From Anaerolineae bacterium (lineage in GTDB: Bacteria; Chloroflexota; Anaerolineae; UBA1429), in contig OY776562.1 in NCBI GenBank assembly GCA_963675785.1, positions 800,001 through 864,000 of the forward strand: a stretch of 64,000 nucleotides of DNA. The letters are read 5' to 3'. Position numbers and translations under genes: made by a program. Below the pieces are notes generated by a model. That model was not told the origin of the DNA and ran no database searches. It saw nothing but the letters and a program-made list of their open reading frames with translations. Positions within the stretch are counted from its first letter, which is position 1; each line of letters opens with the position of its first letter. Below, in pieces: positions 19,721-29,872 of this stretch.

Positions 19721-20449
19721 TCAGGATCCCTGAGCCTGTACGCCAAAATAACCCAGCAGATCCGCAAAGCGCGAGAGCACGATCACGCACTCGGGCTGCT
19801 CAATGGGTTCCAGCTCGGCTACCCAGCTGGCCGGATGGGGGATATAGATAGCACTCAGGCCAGCCCGTACCGCTGGATTGATGTCCGAGCGGGGGCTATT
19901 GCCGATCATCCATGTATTGGCCCAATCTAGTGTTTCTTTCCTGGCGATCTCGACATAGGTCTGGTCATGCTTTTCGGGGACAATGTACTGAGCATCGAAC
20001 AGGTGACTCAAGCCCGAATGGTCTACCTTGCTTTGTTGGTGATTTTGATCGCCCTTGGTCACCAACACCAGCTTGCTGCTCGGCTTGAGCGAGGCCAGCG
20101 TCTCCTGCACGTGATCGAGCAGCACCATGCGCGGCTTGAGCACCACCTCGGCATATTCGGCGATCCGGGTAATCTCAGCTGGATTGGCGTTCAGGCCAGC
20201 TTGTTGTGCCAGCCGTTCGTAGGTTAGTTCGAGCGAGCGCACGTAACCCTCTGGTGAATAGCCGTACTCACTAATGACCTCCAGTTCGGCTACGGATTGA
20301 ATCGTCCGGGCTTGCTCGATGTCAAAATCCAGTGAGGCCATGTGCTCGCCAAAATCGTGGGTGCATTGGCTGTAATAGATATTGCATTCCCACAATGTGT
20401 CGTCGGCATCCACCAGCAGTGTGCGTTCGATGCGGCGCTCCAAACTCAT
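19721..20449 (-). CDS. HAD-superfamily hydrolase
   Basis: DADDTLW, TKGD, EK, MIGNS.RSDINP. Confidence 0.9.
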   Translation of the reverse strand: MSLERRIERTLLVDADDTLWECNIYYSQCTHDFGEHMASLDFDIEQARTIQSVAELEVISEYGYSPEGYVRSLELTYERLAQQAGLNANPAEITRIAEYAEVVLKPRMVLLDHVQETLASLKPSSKLVLVTKGDQNHQQSKVDHSGLSHLFDAQYIVPEKHDQTYVEIARKETLDWANTWMIGNSPRSDINPAVRAGLSAIYIPHPASWVAELEPIEQPECVIVLSRFADLLGYFGVQAQGS

Positions 20450-20526
20450 GTTTTCACCCCTTACAATAATGCCCATCACTATAACATTTCCCTCCCGCTC
20501 TTCCAAGATGGACTAGTTATGTGATT

Positions 20527-20555
20527 TGACACATCTCTCTCGCCATGTTATGCTC
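20527..20555 (+). promoter_or_regulatory. sigma70 promoter of the lys operon
   Basis: TTGACA-N17-TATGCT with extended -10 TG. Confidence 0.75.
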
Positions 20556-20599
20556 GTTGCTATTGATGCGATCGCGTTTGACGCGAATGAGGTGCTAGA

Positions 20600-20701
20600 T
20601 TGTCTCCTGACAACAACGCCACATCCGAGAGGTCTTATTGGCTCAATGCCGACCTCTCCAAGAAAAGCAAGTCGAAGAAGCCGGACCCCTGGTCTGGATA
20701 G
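20600..20701 (+). CDS. Lysine-rich attenuator leader peptide (33 aa)
   Basis: GAGGTG SD, TTG start: MSPDNNATSERSYWLNADLSKKSKSKKPDPWSG*. Five of seven codons at 20660-20680 encode Lys. Confidence 0.8.
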   Translation: MSPDNNATSERSYWLNADLSKKSKSKKPDPWSG

Positions 20702-20728
20702 GCTTGCTCGCATCAGAAAAAGGAATCG

Positions 20729-20766
20729 AGCGGCTCTCCCCGGATCAGGGGAGGGCCGCTTTTGTT
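20729..20766 (+). terminator. Attenuator terminator
   Basis: 13-bp stem AGCGGCTCTCCCC/GGGGAGGGCCGCT followed by TTTGTT, upstream of lysW. Confidence 0.85.
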
Positions 20767-20840
20767 GTGTAGCCCTGTGCTACCTGCAATGCACCTAACC
20801 CCTGCCGGTGAGAGTCCCACTCAACAAGGAGCTGAGACTC

Positions 20841-22151
<1,311 letters not shown>

Positions 22152-22152
<1 letters not shown>

Positions 22153-23402
22153 TGACCCATCAGACTATGGCGGAACAGATTTTGTCCCATGCCGTGGGAC
22201 ATCCCGTCACCCCGGGAGAGCTGGTTATCGTCGATGTGGATTGCTGCATGAGCCACGATTCGTTGACCCCCGAGGTCATCGGCGTGCTGCGCGATATCCT
22301 TCACGTCGAGCGCATCCATGATCCCTCGCGGGTGGCTGTCATCATGGATCACGTGGCCCCGGCGGCCACAGTGGCTACCGCCAATGCTCAGGTGTTAGTG
22401 CGCGAATGGGTTGCCGAGCAGGGCATCACCTCCTTTTACGATGTGGGCTGCGGCGTTTGCCATCAGGTCATGATCGAAGAAGACCTGGTCGAGCCCGGCC
22501 AAATCGCCTTGGGCACCGATTCCCACGCCACCTCTTACGGCTCGGTGGGTGCCTTTGGCACTGGCGTGGGCACTCGCGATATGGCTCTGGCGCTGGCCAG
22601 CGGTCAAATCTGGCTGCGCGTGCCCACCACCATCCTGGTACGCGTCAGCGGACGTTTTAATCCCGGCGTCAGTCCCAAGGATCTCAGCCTCTATCTCTGC
22701 GGTCTGCTGGGTTTGGATGGCGCCACCTACGAGGCCGTCGAGTTCCACGGCTTGGATTGGCTGCCCCTGGATGGCCGCGAGACCCTGGCTTCCATGACCA
22801 CCGAACTGGGCGCCAAAGTTGGTCTGGTGCCGCCCTTTGGTCCTGCTGCCGCCCATCTCAATGTGCCCGAATGGCTCCACGTCGATGAAGAGGCCATCTA
22901 CAGCCGCATCATCGATATCGATCTCGCCACGCTAGAGCCGCAAGTGTCCATCCCGCCCGAGGTCGACCATGTGCGTCTGGCCTCCGAGTTGGGCGATGTG
23001 GCCGTCAATCAGGTCTTTATCGGCACCTGCACCAACGGCCGCCTCACTGATCTGCGCGCTGCCGCAGACATTCTGCGTGGGCAGCATGTGGCTGCTGGCG
23101 TGCGTCTGCTGGTGATTCCCGCTTCTCACCGCATTCTCCAAGATGCCATCGCTGAGGGCGTCCTGCAAGACCTGCTGGCTGCTGGAGCCACCATTGGCAC
23201 GCCGGGTTGCGGTCCCTGCATCGGTCGCCACATGGGCGTCATCGGTGCTGGCGAAGTTTGCCTTTCTACCGCCAACCGCAATTTCCGCGGGCGTATGGGC
23301 GATCCTGAAGGGCTCATCTATCTCAGCTCGCCCGAGACGGCGGCTGCTTCGGCCCTTACCGGCCGCATCACCGATCCGCGAACCCTCCGGGGAGGGGAAT
23401 GA
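22152..23402 (+). CDS. lysT: Homoaconitase large subunit
   Basis: DH, GVCHQ, DSH, IGTCTNGR, CGPCIG, NRNFRGRMG; operon context. Confidence 0.9.
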
Positions 23403-23403
23403 C

Positions 23404-23919
23404 ATGACCAGAATATGGATGTTTGGTGATGATGTGGACACCGACCAGATTCTGCCCGGTCGTTACGCCCCTTATATGACCTCCGAGGCCGAGCTGTCCA
23501 AGTATCCCTTTATCGAGGCTCGTCCCGAGTTCGCCGGCCAGGTGGTCCGTGGCGATGTGATCGTGGCTGGCAAGAACTTTGGCTGTGGTTCCAGCCGCGA
23601 ATACGCCCCGCGAGCCCTCTACATGGTGGGCCTGGGTGCCGTGATTGCCCCCAGTTTCTCCCGTATCTTTTACCGCAACGCTCTGAACCTGGGCTTGCCC
23701 CTCTTTGAGGCTGACCTGACTGACCAGGTCAGCGATGGCGATGAAGCCGTTCTCATCTTGGATCGTTTCGAGCTGTTGGTTGGCGATCGCTGCATTGCCC
23801 TGCCTGCGCCTGCCCCCTGGGTGCGCGAGGTCTGGGAGAATGGCGGTATCCTGGCCTATTACGCCCGTTATGGTCGTTTCCCCGTGGGAGAACGCACATG
23901 TCACACCACATCTGCTTGA
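23404..23919 (+). CDS. lysU: Homoaconitase small subunit
   Basis: DVDTDQILPGRY, NFGCGSSREYAP, IFYRNA.N.GLP. Confidence 0.9.
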   Translation: MTRIWMFGDDVDTDQILPGRYAPYMTSEAELSKYPFIEARPEFAGQVVRGDVIVAGKNFGCGSSREYAPRALYMVGLGAVIAPSFSRIFYRNALNLGLPLFEADLTDQVSDGDEAVLILDRFELLVGDRCIALPAPAPWVREVWENGGILAYYARYGRFPVGERTCHTTSA

Positions 23920-24905
23920 TCCCCGGCGACGGTATCGGTCTGGAGGTCATCCCTGCCGCCCGCGAGGTGCTGGAGGCCATGAACTTGGACCTGACCTTCT
24001 CCAACGCCGAGGCTGGCTGGGCTACCTTTGAGCGTCTGGGCACGGCCCTCCCCGAGGAGACCGTTGAGGCTGTACGCACGTCCGATGCTTGCCTCTTTGG
24101 CGCCGTTTCTTCGCCCCTCAGCCCGGTGCAGGGTTATTCCAGCCCCATCGTGGGCTTGCGTCGCCGTTTGGATCTCTACGCCAACCTGCGCCCGGTGCTC
24201 TCTCAGCCCCTGCCCGGCTCTTGTGTGGGCATCGACATGCTCATTGTTCGCGAGAACAGCGAGGGGCTTTACGGTGGTGCTGAGACCCGCACGTCCGAGC
24301 GCGCTACCACCGAACGGGTCATCACGCGTGCTGCTTCTGAGCGCATCGTCGATCTCGCCTTCCAGCAGGCTGCTCAGCGTCGCGGCCTGGTTACCATCGT
24401 ACACAAGGCCAACGTGCTTCGTGCTACCTGCGGCCTTTTCCGCGAGACCGCCTTTGAGGTAGCCGCCCGCTATCCCCACATCCAGGTCGAAGAGATGCTG
24501 GTCGATGCCGCTGCCATGCGTCTCATCACCTATCCCCAGCGTTTCGATGTCATCGTCACCACCAATTTGTTTGGCGACATTCTCTCCGACGAGGCCGCGG
24601 CTCTGGTGGGCGGATTGGGATTAGCCCCCTCGGGCAACGTGGGCTTGAACGCGGCGGTGTTCGAACCTGTGCACGGCTCTGCGCCCGATATCGCTGGTCA
24701 GGGCATCGCCAATCCCTGCGCGGCGCTGTCTGCTGCTGCCATGATGTTGGATCATCTGCACGAAATCGAGGCGGCCGCGCGTTTGCGTGCTGCTTTGCAT
24801 CAGGTCATCGAGAACGGCCCCCGCACGCCCGATCTGGGTGGCGAGGCCACCACATGTCAGGTTGTGGATGCTGTACTGCGTTCTCTGGAAGAGAGGGAAT
24901 CATGA
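23898..24905 (+). CDS. hicd: Homoisocitrate dehydrogenase
   Basis: [43 protein letters not shown]; operon context. Confidence 0.88.
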
Positions 24906-25756
24906 GAGTCGGAATGCTGCTGTCCCGGGTGCGTGTAGAGGAAAAGCTGCTCATTCAGGCTTTTGCCGATCGCGGTATCGAATTGGACTTGATCGACGAT
25001 CGCGAATTGATACTCGATGTGGGCGATCCCACACCATTTACCAGTTATGACGTCGTCGTCGAGCGCTGCATCACCCATTCACGCGCTCTGTACACCCTGG
25101 AAGTGCTGAACAGCTGGGGCATTCCCACTGTCAATACCTTTGAGGTAGCCAACGTCTGCGGTAACAAGCTCTCTACCACGCGGGCCCTGTTCGCCAATGG
25201 CGTGCCTTCACCACGCACCATGCTGGCCTACACGCCCGAATCGGCCCTCGTGGCCATCGAGCAGATGGGCTATCCCGTGGTGCTCAAGCCGGCTGTGGGT
25301 TCTTGGGGGCGGCTCATCGCCAAAGTCAACGATCGCGAGGCCGCTGAGGCTATTCTGGAGCACAAAGCCACTTTGGGCTCTTATCAGCACTCGATCTTTT
25401 ACATCCAGGAGTATATCGACAAGCCGCAGCGCGATATCCGCACCTTTGTGGTGGGTGATGAGACCATCGCCGGTATCTATCGCCATTCCGAGCACTGGAT
25501 TACCAACACGGCGCGCGGTGGTCGGGCTGAGAACTGCCCCATCACCCCCGAAATCGACGATCTCTCGCGTCGGGCGGCTGAGGCCGTGGGGGGCGGTGTG
25601 GTTGCTATCGACATTCTCGAACGGGCTTCGGGTGAGCTGCTGGTCAACGAGGTCAATTACACCATGGAGTTCCGCAACAGCATCGATACAACCGGTGTCA
25701 ACATCCCCGCCCGGGTGGTGGATTACGTCCTGGCTGTGGGAAGGAGAGAAGCATGA
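24902..25756 (+). CDS. lysX: Alpha-aminoadipate--LysW ligase
   Basis: [30 protein letters not shown]. Confidence 0.95.
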
Positions 25757-26817
25757 GTCCTATCACTGCTTCCATCGTTGGTGCTTCTGGTTATGTCGGC
25801 GGAGAGCTGTTGCGGTTGCTTTTGTCTCACCCCGAGGTCGAGATCAGGCAGGCCACTTCCGAGCGTCAGGCTGGGCGCTATGTCTATGCCACCCATCCCA
25901 ATCTGCGCGGTCACACGGCGCTCAAATACGTCACCATGGCCGAGCTAGAGCCTTGCAATGTGCTCTTTTGCGCGCTGCCCCACGGTCAAACCATGCGTCG
26001 CATCGCTCAATTGGACACCCTGGCTGACTATATCGTCGATCTCTCGGCTGATTTTCGTCTGCACGATACCGCCCTCTATGAGCGCTGGTACGGCGAGCCC
26101 CATGCCGCGCCCGAATGGTTGGATCGTTTCGTCTATGGCCTGCCCGAGATCAATCGCGAGCGCATTCGCGGCGCTCACTATGTTAGCGGTGTGGGTTGTA
26201 ACGCCACTGCCACGAACTTGGCCCTCTGGCCTCTCTTTCAGCAGGGGGTGGTCGATACAGAGCGCGGTGTGATTGTCGAGGTCAAGGCGGGTTCTTCTGA
26301 AAGCGGTGCGGAGACCACGCCTTCTTCCCATCATCCCGATCGTAGCGGGGCCGTGCGTTCTTTTGCCCCCACCGGCCACCGCCACACCGCCGAAGTGGTG
26401 CAGGCTCTTTCGGCAGAGGGTCAGGTGCCCGTGCACATGTCCGTGACGGCCATCGAAATGGTGCGTGGTGTGCTGGCCACGGCTCACGTCTTTGTTCGCC
26501 CCCAGGCTTTGGCCGAGGGCTTTGCCCTCAAGGATCTCTGGAAGGCTTATCGTGGCGTTTATGGTGATGAGCCTTTTGTGCGCCTGGTGCGCGAACGCCA
26601 GGGCGTCTATCGCTACCCCGAACCCAAGATATTGGCCGGCAGTAATCACGCCGACGTGGGCTTTGATTATGATGAGACCACTGGCCGCATCGTCGCTATC
26701 TGCGCCATCGACAATCTGATGAAGGGCGCTGCGGGTACGGCGGTGCAGTGCATGAATTTGATGCTGAGCCTGCCAGAGACTGCTGGCCTCGGTTTTTCCG
26801 GCCTTCATCCGGCCTAG
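25753..26817 (+). CDS. lysY: [LysW]-aminoadipyl-phosphate reductase
   Basis: [37 protein letters not shown]. Confidence 0.93.
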
Positions 26818-26826
26818 GAGGTAAAT

Positions 26827-27630
26827 ATGCTGGTTATCAAAGTGGGCGGCAGCGAGGGCATTGATCTGGATGCCGTATGTGATGATGTGGCCGCGCTGGT
26901 GAATGCTGGCCAGGAACTGGTGTTGGTGCACGGCGGCAGCCATCGCACCAACGTGGTTTCCGAACAGCTGGGTCATCCGGCCGAATTTGTCACATCAGAG
27001 AGCGGGTTTACCAGTCGACGTACCGATAGGGGTACCATTCGGATCTTTGAAATGGTATACTGCGGCGAGGTAAACAAAGGCATCGTTGAGCGCCTTCAAG
27101 GTAGGGGCGTCAATGCGGTGGGCTTGTCGGGTCTCGACGGCCGCCTGCTCGAAGGGAATCGCAAGGCTGCGATTCGTATCGTGCAGAACGGCCGTCGTCG
27201 CGTTTTAAGGGACGATTACACCGGTACCGTTGAGACGGTGAACGTCGATCTCTTGCGCTTGTTGATGGGTGCTGGCTATACACCGGTGGTAACCCCGCCG
27301 GCTATCAGCACGGAGAACGAGGCCATCAACGTCGATGGTGATCGCGCTGCTGCACGCATTGCTGCTGCGTTGCGGGCCGATACGCTGGTCATTCTCTCCA
27401 ACGTGCCTGGCTTGTTGGCCAACTATCCCGACGAGGACAGCCTGATAGCTCATGTGGACGCGGCACGCGCCGAGCAGGCTATGGAACATGCTCAGGGGCG
27501 TATGCGCATCAAGGTATTGGGAGCTGCTGAGGCCATCCGTGACGGCGTAGGCCGGGTGATATTTGGCGATGCACGAATCAAAGAGCCGGTGCAGCGGGCA
27601 TTGGCCGGACGTGGTACTGTAATAGAGTAG
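26827..27630 (+). CDS. lysZ: [LysW]-aminoadipate kinase
   Basis: VIKVGGS, VHGGS, SRRTD, NVDGDRAAA. Confidence 0.95.
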   Translation: MLVIKVGGSEGIDLDAVCDDVAALVNAGQELVLVHGGSHRTNVVSEQLGHPAEFVTSESGFTSRRTDRGTIRIFEMVYCGEVNKGIVERLQGRGVNAVGLSGLDGRLLEGNRKAAIRIVQNGRRRVLRDDYTGTVETVNVDLLRLLMGAGYTPVVTPPAISTENEAINVDGDRAAARIAAALRADTLVILSNVPGLLANYPDEDSLIAHVDAARAEQAMEHAQGRMRIKVLGAAEAIRDGVGRVIFGDARIKEPVQRALAGRGTVIE

Positions 27631-27642
27631 TGGGAGAGCGGC

Positions 27643-28815
27643 ATGAGTGAGTTCAACACAGTTGCCATCGAGGATCAGTATAGCAGCGGCGTAACCGCCC
27701 ATCACCCCATCACCATCGCTCGGGGTAGCGGTCCCTATTTGTGGGATGACCAGGGCAACCGCTATATCGACTGCGTGGCCGGCTATGGCACGGCCAACGT
27801 CGGGCATTGTCATCCCAAGGTCACGGCGGCCATTCAAAAGCAAGCGGCTGAACTCGTGGTTTGCCCCGGCTGTCAATACAACGAAACCAGGGCCAGGTTG
27901 CTTGAAAAGCTGGTCGAGTTGGCCCCGGGAGATATCGACCGTGTCTATCTTGGCAACTCGGGCACCGAGTCGGTTGAGGCGGCGCTAAAGTTCGCCCGTC
28001 TTTCTACCGGTCGCCAGGGTATCATCGCCACCAAGCGGGCCTTCCACGGCCGTTCTATGGGTTCGCTTTCCGCCACCTGGGAAGCCAAATATCGTGATCC
28101 CTATCTCCCGCTGGTGCCCGGCTTTTCCCATGTCACCTATAACGACATCGAGGCCATGGATGCGGCCATTACCGATGAGACCGCGGGTGTCATCCTTGAG
28201 ATAGTGCAGGGCGAGGGCGGTATTTATCTCGGTGATGGCGATTATTTGCGCGCTGTGCAGCAAATGTGCCGTGACCGCGGTGCCATGTTCATCGTCGATG
28301 AAGTACAGACTGGCTGTGGTCGCACTGGCCGTTTCTTCGCCTCTGAGCACTACGACCTGGAGCCGGATATGATCTGTCTGGCCAAGTCCTTGGCTGGCGG
28401 CGTGCCCATTGGTGCCACCCTTGTTGGTCCTCGTGTCGAGAACCTGAGCCCCAGTGTGCACGGCACCACCTTTGGCGGCAACCCCTTGGCGGCTGCGGCG
28501 GCCTTGGCGGCCATTGAGGTCATCGAGGAAGAGCATCTGGCTGAGCGTGCTGAAAAGTTGGGAGTCATGGCTGTAGCGCGTCTCCAGCAAATCGAATCGC
28601 CCTTGATTCGTGAGGTGCGCGGTCTGGGCCTGATGGTAGGTGTCGATTTGCGTGTGCGCCCTGGCAAGTTCGTCAATGCCTTGCTCGATGAGGGCGTCAT
28701 GGCCCTTACCGCTGGTCACACCGTGCTCCGCCTGCTGCCCACCCTGGTCATCGGTGAGGATGACCTCATGACGGCCTGCGATGCCGTTGAGCGCGTGCTC
28801 ATGGCTGAGGAATAG
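27643..28815 (+). CDS. lysJ: [LysW]-aminoadipate semialdehyde transaminase
   Basis: NSGTES.EAA, FHGR, QGEGG, DEVQTG, LAKSLAGG, HGTTFGGNP. Confidence 0.92.
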   Translation: MSEFNTVAIEDQYSSGVTAHHPITIARGSGPYLWDDQGNRYIDCVAGYGTANVGHCHPKVTAAIQKQAAELVVCPGCQYNETRARLLEKLVELAPGDIDRVYLGNSGTESVEAALKFARLSTGRQGIIATKRAFHGRSMGSLSATWEAKYRDPYLPLVPGFSHVTYNDIEAMDAAITDETAGVILEIVQGEGGIYLGDGDYLRAVQQMCRDRGAMFIVDEVQTGCGRTGRFFASEHYDLEPDMICLAKSLAGGVPIGATLVGPRVENLSPSVHGTTFGGNPLAAAAALAAIEVIEEEHLAERAEKLGVMAVARLQQIESPLIREVRGLGLMVGVDLRVRPGKFVNALLDEGVMALTAGHTVLRLLPTLVIGEDDLMTACDAVERVLMAEE

Positions 28816-28816
28816 C

Positions 28817-29872
28817 ATGATTTTCGACGACGGTCAGGCGGTCTTGCTGCTGCAAGAGTTGGTGGGTACACCCAGCATCTCGGGTGATGAGGCCGCGGCC
28901 GTCGCCGTAGCGGTGCGTTGGATGTGCGAACTGGGCTTTGTCGCTGATGCCGATGGTGTCGGCAATGCCGTCGGTTCTCTGGGCGATGGCCCCCGTGAAT
29001 TGCTTCTCTTGGGCCACATTGATACCGTGCCTGGTCAGGTACCCATCCGTCGTGAGGGCGATCTGTTCTATGGTCGTGGTTCGGTGGATGCCAAGGGCCC
29101 TCTATCCGCCTTTATCGCTGCCGTGGGGCGTCTCGGTGCCTTGCCTGGATTGCGTCTCACCGTGGTGGGTGCTGTTGAAGAGGAAGCGGCCACTTCGCGT
29201 GGTGCCCGTTATCTGCTGGATCGCCACCAGCCCGAGTTCGTCATCATTGGCGAACCCAGCGGTTGGGAGAGTGTCACCCTGGGTTACAAGGGCCGTCTGC
29301 TCATCGATTACGAGCTGACGCGCGGCCTTACCCACACCGCTGGTCAGGACGTGTCTGCGGCCGAGCAGGCTTTTGCCTTTTGGCAATCCCTTTCCGCCTG
29401 GTGCGAGTCGCGCAACGCTGGTCTGGACAAGGCCTTTGACCGTATTCTGCCTTCCATTCGCACCATTACCGCTGCACCACAGGGCTTGTATGATGCGACC
29501 CATATGACCCTCAGTCTGCGCCTGCCCCCGGTCTTTGACCGCGAGGATTTTGAGGTTGCGGCTCGGGGCTGGGCTGGTGATGCTCAATTGAGTTATCGTG
29601 GTTACGAGGCGGCCTATCGCGCCAGTGCGCGCACGCCGCTAGCCAGCGCTTTTAGGGCGGCCATTCGCCAGCAGGGGGGCAGGGCTGGCACCCTGGTCAA
29701 AACCGGCACCTCGGATATGAACGTGGTTGGCCCCGTCTGGCAGTGCCCCATTCTGGCCTACGGCCCCGGTGATTCTAGCTTGGATCACACCCCCGACGAA
29801 CACATCGATCTGCGTGAGTACCTCCGCGCCATCGCCGTGCTGCAGGACGCTATCACTCGCCTCTGTTCTTGA
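28817..29872 (+). CDS. lysK: [LysW]-lysine hydrolase
   Basis: GHIDTV, GRGSVDAKG, EEE, GEPSG, KTGTSDMN, YGPGDS.LDHTP.E. Confidence 0.95.
   Translation: MIFDDGQAVLLLQELVGTPSISGDEAAAVAVAVRWMCELGFVADADGVGNAVGSLGDGPRELLLLGHIDTVPGQVPIRREGDLFYGRGSVDAKGPLSAFIAAVGRLGALPGLRLTVVGAVEEEAATSRGARYLLDRHQPEFVIIGEPSGWESVTLGYKGRLLIDYELTRGLTHTAGQDVSAAEQAFAFWQSLSAWCESRNAGLDKAFDRILPSIRTITAAPQGLYDATHMTLSLRLPPVFDREDFEVAARGWAGDAQLSYRGYEAAYRASARTPLASAFRAAIRQQGGRAGTLVKTGTSDMNVVGPVWQCPILAYGPGDSSLDHTPDEHIDLREYLRAIAVLQDAITRLCS

Follow-up and report, generated by a model that had tools for sequence, protein, structure and literature searches.

A lysine-codon leader upstream of the LysW operon of an Anaerolineae bacterium: a probable leader-peptide attenuator with arginine and proline relatives

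The leader-peptide attenuators of enterobacteria include trpL, hisL, leuL, thrL, ilvL and pheL, and Rfam holds leader families such as Trp_leader, His_leader and others. For lysine, the aminoadipate cluster of Thermus thermophilus reportedly begins with a leader open reading frame (ORF) carrying Lys codons, followed by a terminator; the peptide is said to comprise 14 codons with two adjacent Lys codons. In E. coli pheM-pheST, a leader peptide with cognate codons controls an aminoacyl-tRNA synthetase operon. Here, the leader upstream of lysW was analyzed in a 64,000-nucleotide stretch of an Anaerolineae bacterium (the window; contig OY776562.1 of assembly GCA_963675785.1, positions 800,001 to 864,000, forward strand). 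This leader is very probably a transcription attenuator of the leader-peptide type, in which ribosomes sense the supply of charged lysyl-tRNA. In function it is a textbook leader-peptide attenuator, in an uncatalogued family.

The lysW leader shares with the enterobacterial attenuators the four-segment logic (pairings 1:2, 2:3 and 3:4), sensor codons within segment 1, an intrinsic terminator upstream of the first structural gene, and a stop codon placed so that a terminating ribosome would mask segment 2. It differs from them in that lysine would be the amino acid sensed, in that no Rfam leader family matches it, and in that a single scaffold, recognized by one covariance model, serves Lys, Arg or Pro codons; we know of no such reuse of one scaffold for different amino acids among the enterobacterial leaders. 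With the Thermus leader, as it is reported, the pathway, the sensed amino acid and the logic are in common, whereas the phylum is different and the leader described here has 33 codons, five Lys and a two-helix antiterminator that includes the terminator loop. Premature termination of lysine-synthesis genes when lysine is plentiful is also the outcome of the lysine riboswitch (L-box, RF00168), but in that case the RNA binds its ligand directly, and the window leader gives no match to it. The mechanism is a textbook one that, for lysine, has reportedly already been shown in Thermus, and the gain lies in breadth and in a reusable scaffold, not in a new principle. The present analysis adds that segment 2 also pairs with the loop of the terminator, that covariation can be counted for each of the three states, and that one model links the Lys, Arg and Pro elements. 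A full-text literature search returned no description of a Lys leader attenuator in Chloroflexota. Gene regulation in this phylum is largely unstudied and most of its genomes come from uncultured organisms. An attenuator that a model can recognize would help to annotate the aminoadipate lysine operon and the way it is regulated.

Anatomy of the leader and its predicted states

It was confirmed that the region 20526-20841 contains a promoter, a Shine-Dalgarno sequence, an upstream ORF (uORF) and a terminator, followed by the lysine operon. The sigma-70-type promoter (20526-20554, plus strand, as are all leader features below) consists of TTGACA at 20526-20531, a 17-nt spacer and TATGCT at 20549-20554, with a TG extension at 20546-47, and it agrees with the consensus at 10 of 12 positions. 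An earlier note on this DNA, which proposed a trp-style attenuator here, had placed the promoter at 20527-20555, an offset of one base. The Shine-Dalgarno sequence GAGGTG (20589-20594) is located 5 nt upstream of the TTG at 20600, the sole in-frame start of the uORF (20600-20701; 33 codons, TAG stop at 20699-20701, peptide MSPDNNATSERSYWLNADLSKKSKSKKPDPWSG). The sensor codons AAG AAA AGC AAG TCG AAG AAG (K K S K S K K) occupy 20660-20680 in this frame, with five Lys in seven codons. In these three elements the proposal was found again as described. Directly 5' of the Lys run and still within the uORF, a hairpin at 20627-20658 (GAGAGGUC...GACCUCUC) is present in the minimum free energy (MFE) folds; it is possibly a pause or timing hairpin.

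Four segments follow the logic given above. Segment 1 (20666-20687) has an outer arm AGCAAGUC (20666-73) and an inner arm CCGGACC (20681-87), the latter being the P-D codons, so that its layout is AGAGCAAGUC...AAGAAG...CCGGACC. Segment 2 (20690-20711) comprises UGGUCUGG, the stop codon UAG, which therefore falls inside the segment, and then GGCUUGCUCG (the portion after the stop codon is also written GCUUGCUC); its partner is either segment 1 or segment 3. Segment 3 (20727-20747, CGAGCGGCUCUCCCCGGAUCA; layout GAGCAGC-UUUCC-CCAGACCA) forms the 5' arm and the loop of the terminator, and segment 4 is the 3' arm together with the U-tract. The intrinsic terminator (3:4, 20728-20768) follows the leader ORF and precedes lysW, and it has a 14-pair stem at 20728-20761 with 10 G-C pairs, a 6-nt loop and the tail TTTTGTTG. 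The terminator itself had been recognized correctly before, but as a 13-bp stem with limits at 20729-20760. The ATG start of lysW is at 20841, not 20840.

The leader has an MFE of -96.5 kcal/mol (z = -6.3), and none of 200 shuffled sequences was as good. Without constraints, the MFE fold contains the suggested pairing of segments 1 and 2, through AGCAAGTC (20666-73) and GGCTTGCT (20701-08), and the 1:2 stem of AGCAAGUC with GGCUUGCU is part of this structure. It can also be observed in the MFE folds that UGAUGCG (20565-20571) pairs with CGCAUCA (20710-20716), enclosing the whole uORF domain. GGUCUGG, the W-S-G codons, pairs with CCGGACC, the P-D codons, and it is also complementary to the terminator loop CCAGACC, which is conserved in the alignment described below. 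The antiterminator is accordingly a two-part helix, in which UGGUCUGG pairs with CCGGAUCA in the terminator loop and GGCUUGCUCG pairs with CGAGCGGCUC. The GCUCG:CGAGC pairing between segments 2 and 3 was thus correctly identified in the earlier note, but it is only part of the helix, because UGGUCUGG also pairs with the loop sequence CCGGAUCA.

In the proposed mechanism, transcription would begin near 20561, as judged from the promoter position, and a ribosome would translate the 33-codon leader. When lysine is plentiful, the ribosome would reach the TAG stop and its footprint would cover segment 2, so that segments 3 and 4 could form the terminator and its U-tract and transcription would end before lysW. 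When lysyl-tRNA is scarce, the ribosome would stall on the Lys codons, masking segment 1 and freeing segment 2. The emerging segment 3 would then be captured by segment 2 via the two helices, UGGUCUGG:CCGGAUCA and GGCUUGCUCG:CGAGCGGCUC, and with the 5' arm and loop of the terminator occupied, RNA polymerase would continue into lysW and nine further genes. If the leader is not translated at all, segments 1 and 2 would pair and the terminator would form. Termination and readthrough at this site, the response to lysine and the ribosome footprint geometry are predicted features of the model.

Folding under constraint, which had been suggested as a check, gave results in line with this scheme. For the constrained folds, the ribosome footprint was assumed to extend about 12 nt beyond the A-site codon on its 3' side. 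With the ribosome on Lys codons 1-4 and the RNA extending out to 20747, the MFE structure is the 2:3 antiterminator, at -23.7 kcal/mol; with the ribosome on the fifth Lys codon, the 2:3 antiterminator has an energy of -19.2 kcal/mol. A ribosome that has reached the stop codon covers segment 2, and in this case no antiterminator is obtained (-3.0 kcal/mol) and the terminator forms (-30.9 kcal/mol); given the assumed footprint, a terminating ribosome would therefore occlude segment 2. Without a ribosome, the fold consists of the 1:2 pairing plus the terminator.

Conservation of the reading frame and of the three pairings

Of 61 related genomes, 56 encode LysW, and 29 loci from the same family were analyzed. 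Three of these (L009, L014, L028) lie at a contig end with at most 134 nt upstream, and the other 26 have at least 350 nt. All 26 carry an in-frame Lys-codon uORF that abuts segment 2 and is followed by a terminator. The uORF ends in ...K[KRQ]SK[SA]KKP[DG]xWSG-stop, followed directly by GGCTTGCTC and then the terminator, and at least three Lys occur within eight codons in 24 of the 26 relatives. A search of this kind upstream of lysW had been recommended in the earlier note, for which loss of the uORF and its Lys run among relatives would have spoken against the proposal; both are conserved.

These 26 loci and four more relatives were aligned with MAFFT to give 30 leaders, an alignment not fitted to structure. 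A Shine-Dalgarno-like motif of at least 4 nt is located upstream of the best start codon in 27 of the 30 leaders, and the start codon is ATG in 21, GTG in 7 and TTG in 2. In every leader, the 18 codons that precede the stop are uninterrupted in the Lys frame; the other two frames contain stops in 10/30 and 5/30 leaders. Over the same 18 codons, the mean number of Lys codons is 3.97 in the uORF frame versus 0.37 and 0.33 in the other frames. A stop codon is present in all 30 aligned leaders, with invariant TA columns and only G or A as the third base. N-terminal parts of the uORF are not conserved.

The three alternative pairings are kept across the 30 leaders with compensatory changes, in agreement with the covarying stems that had been anticipated. 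The 1:2 pairing holds in 85.0% of alignment cells, compared with 44.7% for the best slid control, and five pairs changed on both sides. For the 2:3 antiterminator, the value is 92.0% against 42.6% for the best slid control, again with five pairs changed on both sides; these amount to nine cells, a count reached by 1 of 500 shuffles. The 3:4 terminator is kept in 88.3% of cells (best slid control 65.7%), with nine pairs (28 cells) changed on both sides. In 30/30 leaders, the RNA running from segment 2 through the terminator loop adopts the antiterminator fold, with 11 to 17 cross pairs. Mean energies over the 30 leaders were -24.6 kcal/mol for the antiterminator, -22.5 kcal/mol for the terminator and -22.4 kcal/mol for the 1:2 pairing, and the three states are nearly isoenergetic by these calculations. 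At this locus, covariation supports both alternative RNA structures without any experiment.

Strong conservation of the blocks CCGGACC/GGUCUGG and of CCAGACC in the terminator loop could in principle also mark protein sites. This would fit a protein- or tRNA-mediated antiterminator, in which a trans-acting factor, such as an RNA-binding protein or, as in T-boxes, uncharged tRNA, binds the conserved hairpin or the terminator loop and selects the helix, the ORF being incidental. The use of T-boxes elsewhere in this genome lends the idea some support: a search with the T-box model (RF00230) returned seven genome matches (L275-L281), three of them above the gathering score. All seven are at other loci, and the leader itself gives no match to the T-box model. 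Rfam as a whole returned nothing relevant on the leader (20300-21000, E up to 10), and on five relatives' loci and the arginine locus described below it returned no match save one tRNA (E up to 0.1). Furthermore, the conserved blocks are mutually complementary and covary, which accounts for their conservation without a factor, and such a factor does not predict the Shine-Dalgarno sequence with its start codon or the invariant in-frame stop. A trans-acting factor is thus considered very unlikely.

The C-terminal KKPDxWSG of the uORF is strikingly conserved, which raises the question of whether the uORF works mainly via its peptide or its translation, as an arrest peptide (for example around K-K-P-D) or as a micropeptide. 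Pro-Asp following basic residues might slow peptide-bond formation, and this would be in favor of such a role. It should be noted, however, that C-terminal changes track the RNA pairing. Where TGG (W) has become CGG (R) in the peptide (L006, L010, L017, L026), the partner in the terminator loop is G, not A; where WSG is replaced by AFG or TFG, the terminator loop contains CCGAACG. In L003 and L005, CGUUCGG in segment 2 faces CCGAACG in the terminator loop. In Caldilineaceae and Thermoflexus, the stop codon has moved into the hairpin loop and the motif is truncated, while the Lys codons are retained. The N-terminal variability also argues against a peptide function, to which we assign an even smaller chance than to a trans-acting factor. 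Under the attenuator reading, the conserved peptide tail would largely reflect an RNA constraint, and the Lys codons would be the sensor.

Arginine and proline versions of the same scaffold

A covariance model, R1, was built from the 30 Lys leaders only. It scores the window element at 111.6 bits, and its second match in the same genome, at 2605359-2605486, reaches 28.8 bits (E 1.3e-4). This second match corresponds to an Arg sister element (genome 2605347-2605483; locus L175, about 147-283) with a promoter and a uORF, MQGKKMIVIANFQRRSMRTRPD, that has four Arg in seven codons. The same hairpin (CCGGAC/GUCUGG) is present, with the stop codon in the hairpin loop, and the terminator has a CCAGAC loop; the element folds by the same three-state logic. 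It is followed by argC, argB, argD, an acetyltransferase gene, argG and argH. An in-frame Arg run on the same scaffold, typically AGG AGG AGC CGC AGG, was observed at 30/30 family argC loci, one of which is that of the genome itself.

From a class-wide search, 93 R1 matches were inspected. Among the first 33, 26 are upstream of homocitrate synthase (hcs), lysW or lysX and one is upstream of argC; the further 60 include 23 upstream of lys genes and 19 upstream of arg genes. Across both groups of matches, nine ORFs downstream of mostly Pro-rich uORFs were tested, and each was proline-tRNA ligase (proS; L168, L235, L241, L247, L251, L252, L254, L255, L263). A Pro-rich uORF, such as FPLPCPIPRSYPAPGSG, was seen at eight of the nine proS loci, the leader of L247 not being callable. 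These Pro leaders resemble E. coli pheM-pheST in that a cognate-codon leader would control a synthetase gene; they differ from it in amino acid and in lineage.

Residue calls were also made by a frame rule that is blind to residue identity. This rule is heuristic, and 25 of the 93 matches received no ORF call because the hairpin pattern failed. Upstream of lys genes, the dominant residue was K in 39 cases, R in 1 and P in 0, with none in 2 and no call in 7. Upstream of arg genes, it was K in 1, R in 7 and P in 2 (none in 2, no call in 8), and upstream of proS it was P in 5 and K or R in 0 (none in 0, no call in 5). The genomes with R1 matches are kin, and these counts do not represent independent events.

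The natural swap between Lys, Arg and Pro codons is the strongest support for the attenuator reading, as it points to the codons as the sensor. Since the in-frame codons follow the regulated gene, a ligand- or protein-binding RNA would not predict them, and this observation adds to the case against the trans-acting factor discussed above. It also bears on a lysine-binding riboswitch of a new class, in which case the open frame would arise incidentally from the purine-rich sequence. Strong structure and conserved sequence upstream of a lysine operon would be expected of such an element, as would the missing known riboswitch: RF00168 gave no match on the leader and none genome-wide at E ≤0.001, in a search whose controls recovered the known cases in E. 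coli, B. subtilis, T. maritima and L. lactis. On the other hand, the same scaffold lies upstream of arg operons and proS, where the codons, not a pocket, vary with the amino acid. Sequence 5' of the Lys run is not conserved, the multi-helix junction typical of a ligand pocket is lacking, and the three alternative pairings already account for the conserved blocks. A new riboswitch is therefore the least probable of the three alternatives. The attenuator had been proposed to stand in place of a lysine riboswitch or a T-box. This agrees with the genome for the riboswitch, whose lack of a match may arise because the leader-peptide attenuator carries out lysine control; it does not hold for the T-box, as T-box leaders and leader-peptide attenuators appear to be used side by side in this organism. 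The trp-style reading is supported by the conserved uORF, the three kept pairings and the codon swap.

Taken with their genes, these elements probably represent one ancestral scaffold whose amino-acid specificity has been redirected across Chloroflexota by changes in the segment 1 codons, accompanied by corresponding changes in segment 2. Its parts are the inner hairpin CCGGAC/GUCUGG, an adjacent stop, segment 2, and a terminator loop CCAGAC that pairs with the 3' arm of the hairpin. The codons are AAG AAG AGC AAG (Lys) before aminoadipate lysine operons, AGG AGG AGC CGC AGG (Arg) before argC and argG operons, and CCN runs (Pro) before proS; AAG and AGG differ by a single transition. If true, the redirected scaffold would parallel the swapping of specifier codons in T-box leaders, with the ribosome as the reader, and would offer a natural series for studying changes in attenuator specificity.

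Several results weigh against the attenuator reading and should be considered together. RNAalifold on the alignment recovered the terminator and the inner hairpin but missed the outer 1:2 helix, and the consensus energy was weak (-5.48); it was treated as the weaker result, and explicit pair counts with slid controls were preferred. After segment 4 has been made, the terminator is the more stable structure even with a stalled ribosome (-43.6 to -34.2 kcal/mol), and the decision would therefore have to be kinetic and co-transcriptional, as in classical attenuators. Two relatives, L022 and L023, have just two Lys codons in eight, and the TTG start of the window is rare, occurring in 2/30 family leaders. 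The relatives are kin, so the counts overstate independence. Conservation of the C-terminal PDxWSG can largely be explained by RNA pairing, and a conserved peptide is by itself no evidence that the uORF is translated. In addition, the frame assignment is critical, as the +1 frame of AAG-rich sequence gives Arg (AGA). Finally, one match upstream of lys genes (the tandem copy L173) was called R; this sole R call is a mis-call, as an ATG-started K frame is seen by eye.

Operon, genome context and distribution

The operon downstream of the leader (20841-29872, plus strand) contains, by NCBIfam hits, lysW, homocitrate synthase, the large and small subunits of homoaconitase, homoisocitrate dehydrogenase, lysX, lysY, lysZ, lysJ and lysK; the gene assigned as lysY matches the argC model. 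From these assignments, the ten genes constitute a complete LysW-type aminoadipate lysine pathway, and their tight spacing suggests a single transcript. Upstream, the intergenic leader is flanked by a divergent HAD-family hydrolase gene (19721-20506, minus strand). Lys codons account for 44 of 2805 codons (1.6%) in eight of the operon's own genes, versus the five in seven of the sensor run.

In the genome (3.2 Mb, one contig), 1418 sites resemble terminators, and 2843 reading frames end close to one of them. At least five Lys in eight codons occur in only two of these 2843 frames, namely the lysW uORF and the C-terminus of an ordinary gene. A LysW paralogue in the same genome, at 1220771, is without a leader. 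In the own-genome screen for other uORFs rich in a single residue before terminators, none of the 12 candidates inspected was leader-like, all being at gene ends or inside genes; the screen is crude, missed the Arg and Ile/Leu/Val leaders, and is not a census. Weak R1 matches in the same genome at 323080, 813949 and 2753387 were rejected as plain terminators at gene ends. A further weak match (E 0.08) at genome 3165046-3165183 on the minus strand (L141) has a promoter, an Ile/Leu/Val-rich uORF (MSNLVAAFFMILVLVQLLIIEGPVLVGSEGR) and a terminator before dihydroxy-acid dehydratase (ilvD, NCBIfam), and it is likely to be a branched-chain amino-acid attenuator.

R1 matches were obtained in 85 of 151 class genomes, covering 57 of 101 genera (E up to 0.01), and in 16 of 151 genomes of a phylum-wide sample (E up to 0.001). 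The latter include a family of another class in which all nine genomes were matched, in each case upstream of hcs, with leaders such as MRNVHASTKQSKRAKKPDARSG. The leader is located upstream of hcs where lysW is not the first gene. Variants include KQSKAKKPDxHVW in the Amarolinea type, CIKSKKRNPD with the stop codon in the hairpin loop in Caldilineaceae, and the 9-codon MGVCKKPDR in Thermoflexus. By a search of contigs with homocitrate synthase, the nearest relatives are metagenome-assembled genomes (MAGs) labelled Chloroflexota, Anaerolineae or Anaerolineales; farther relatives are Caldilineaceae, Ardenticatena, Amarolinea, Promineifilaceae and Thermoflexus, together with some Acidobacteriota MAGs at about 69% identity.

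Other observations concern individual leaders. Between the terminator and the lysW Shine-Dalgarno sequence, a second conserved hairpin-like element is present in 14 of 27 family leaders (L004, L006, L007, L010, L011, L012, L016, L017, L018, L020, L021, L025, L027, L029) and was not found in the window. Its consensus, CCATCRnCGnCCGGnCCCGCAGTGTYGCCCCGGTGATGG, includes the CCGGAC motif again, and the element has no Rfam match. Tandem Lys attenuators are located upstream of homocitrate synthase in three class relatives (L150, L153, L173). Pro-rich leaders also occur upstream of a Metallophos-domain gene (L224, L230, L259). Paralogous lysW-lysX-lysY clusters follow Arg-rich leaders in two relatives (L057, L045), for example ...NRIRRARAKPGHLSG, a possible sign that arginine is made by a LysW-dependent branch under a separate Arg attenuator. 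Three R1 matches (L172, L214, L264) lie upstream of solute-binding or permease genes (SBP_bac_3, Peripla_BP_6, BPD_transp_1), the leader of L172 reading ...HIRHNKPQKPDYGSG; these genes may encode transporters of amino acids that are regulated in a similar way. In MAGs labelled Acidobacteriota, Holophagales or Vicinamibacteraceae (L106, L112, L120, L121, L124, L125, L137), a different uORF with spaced Lys codons (...VKPLHKRGAKPRLQDWVPIA) is followed by a terminator. The uORF of the Acidobacteriota-labelled MAGs precedes a homocitrate synthase about 69% identical to that of the window, and it may be an independent or diverged Lys attenuator.

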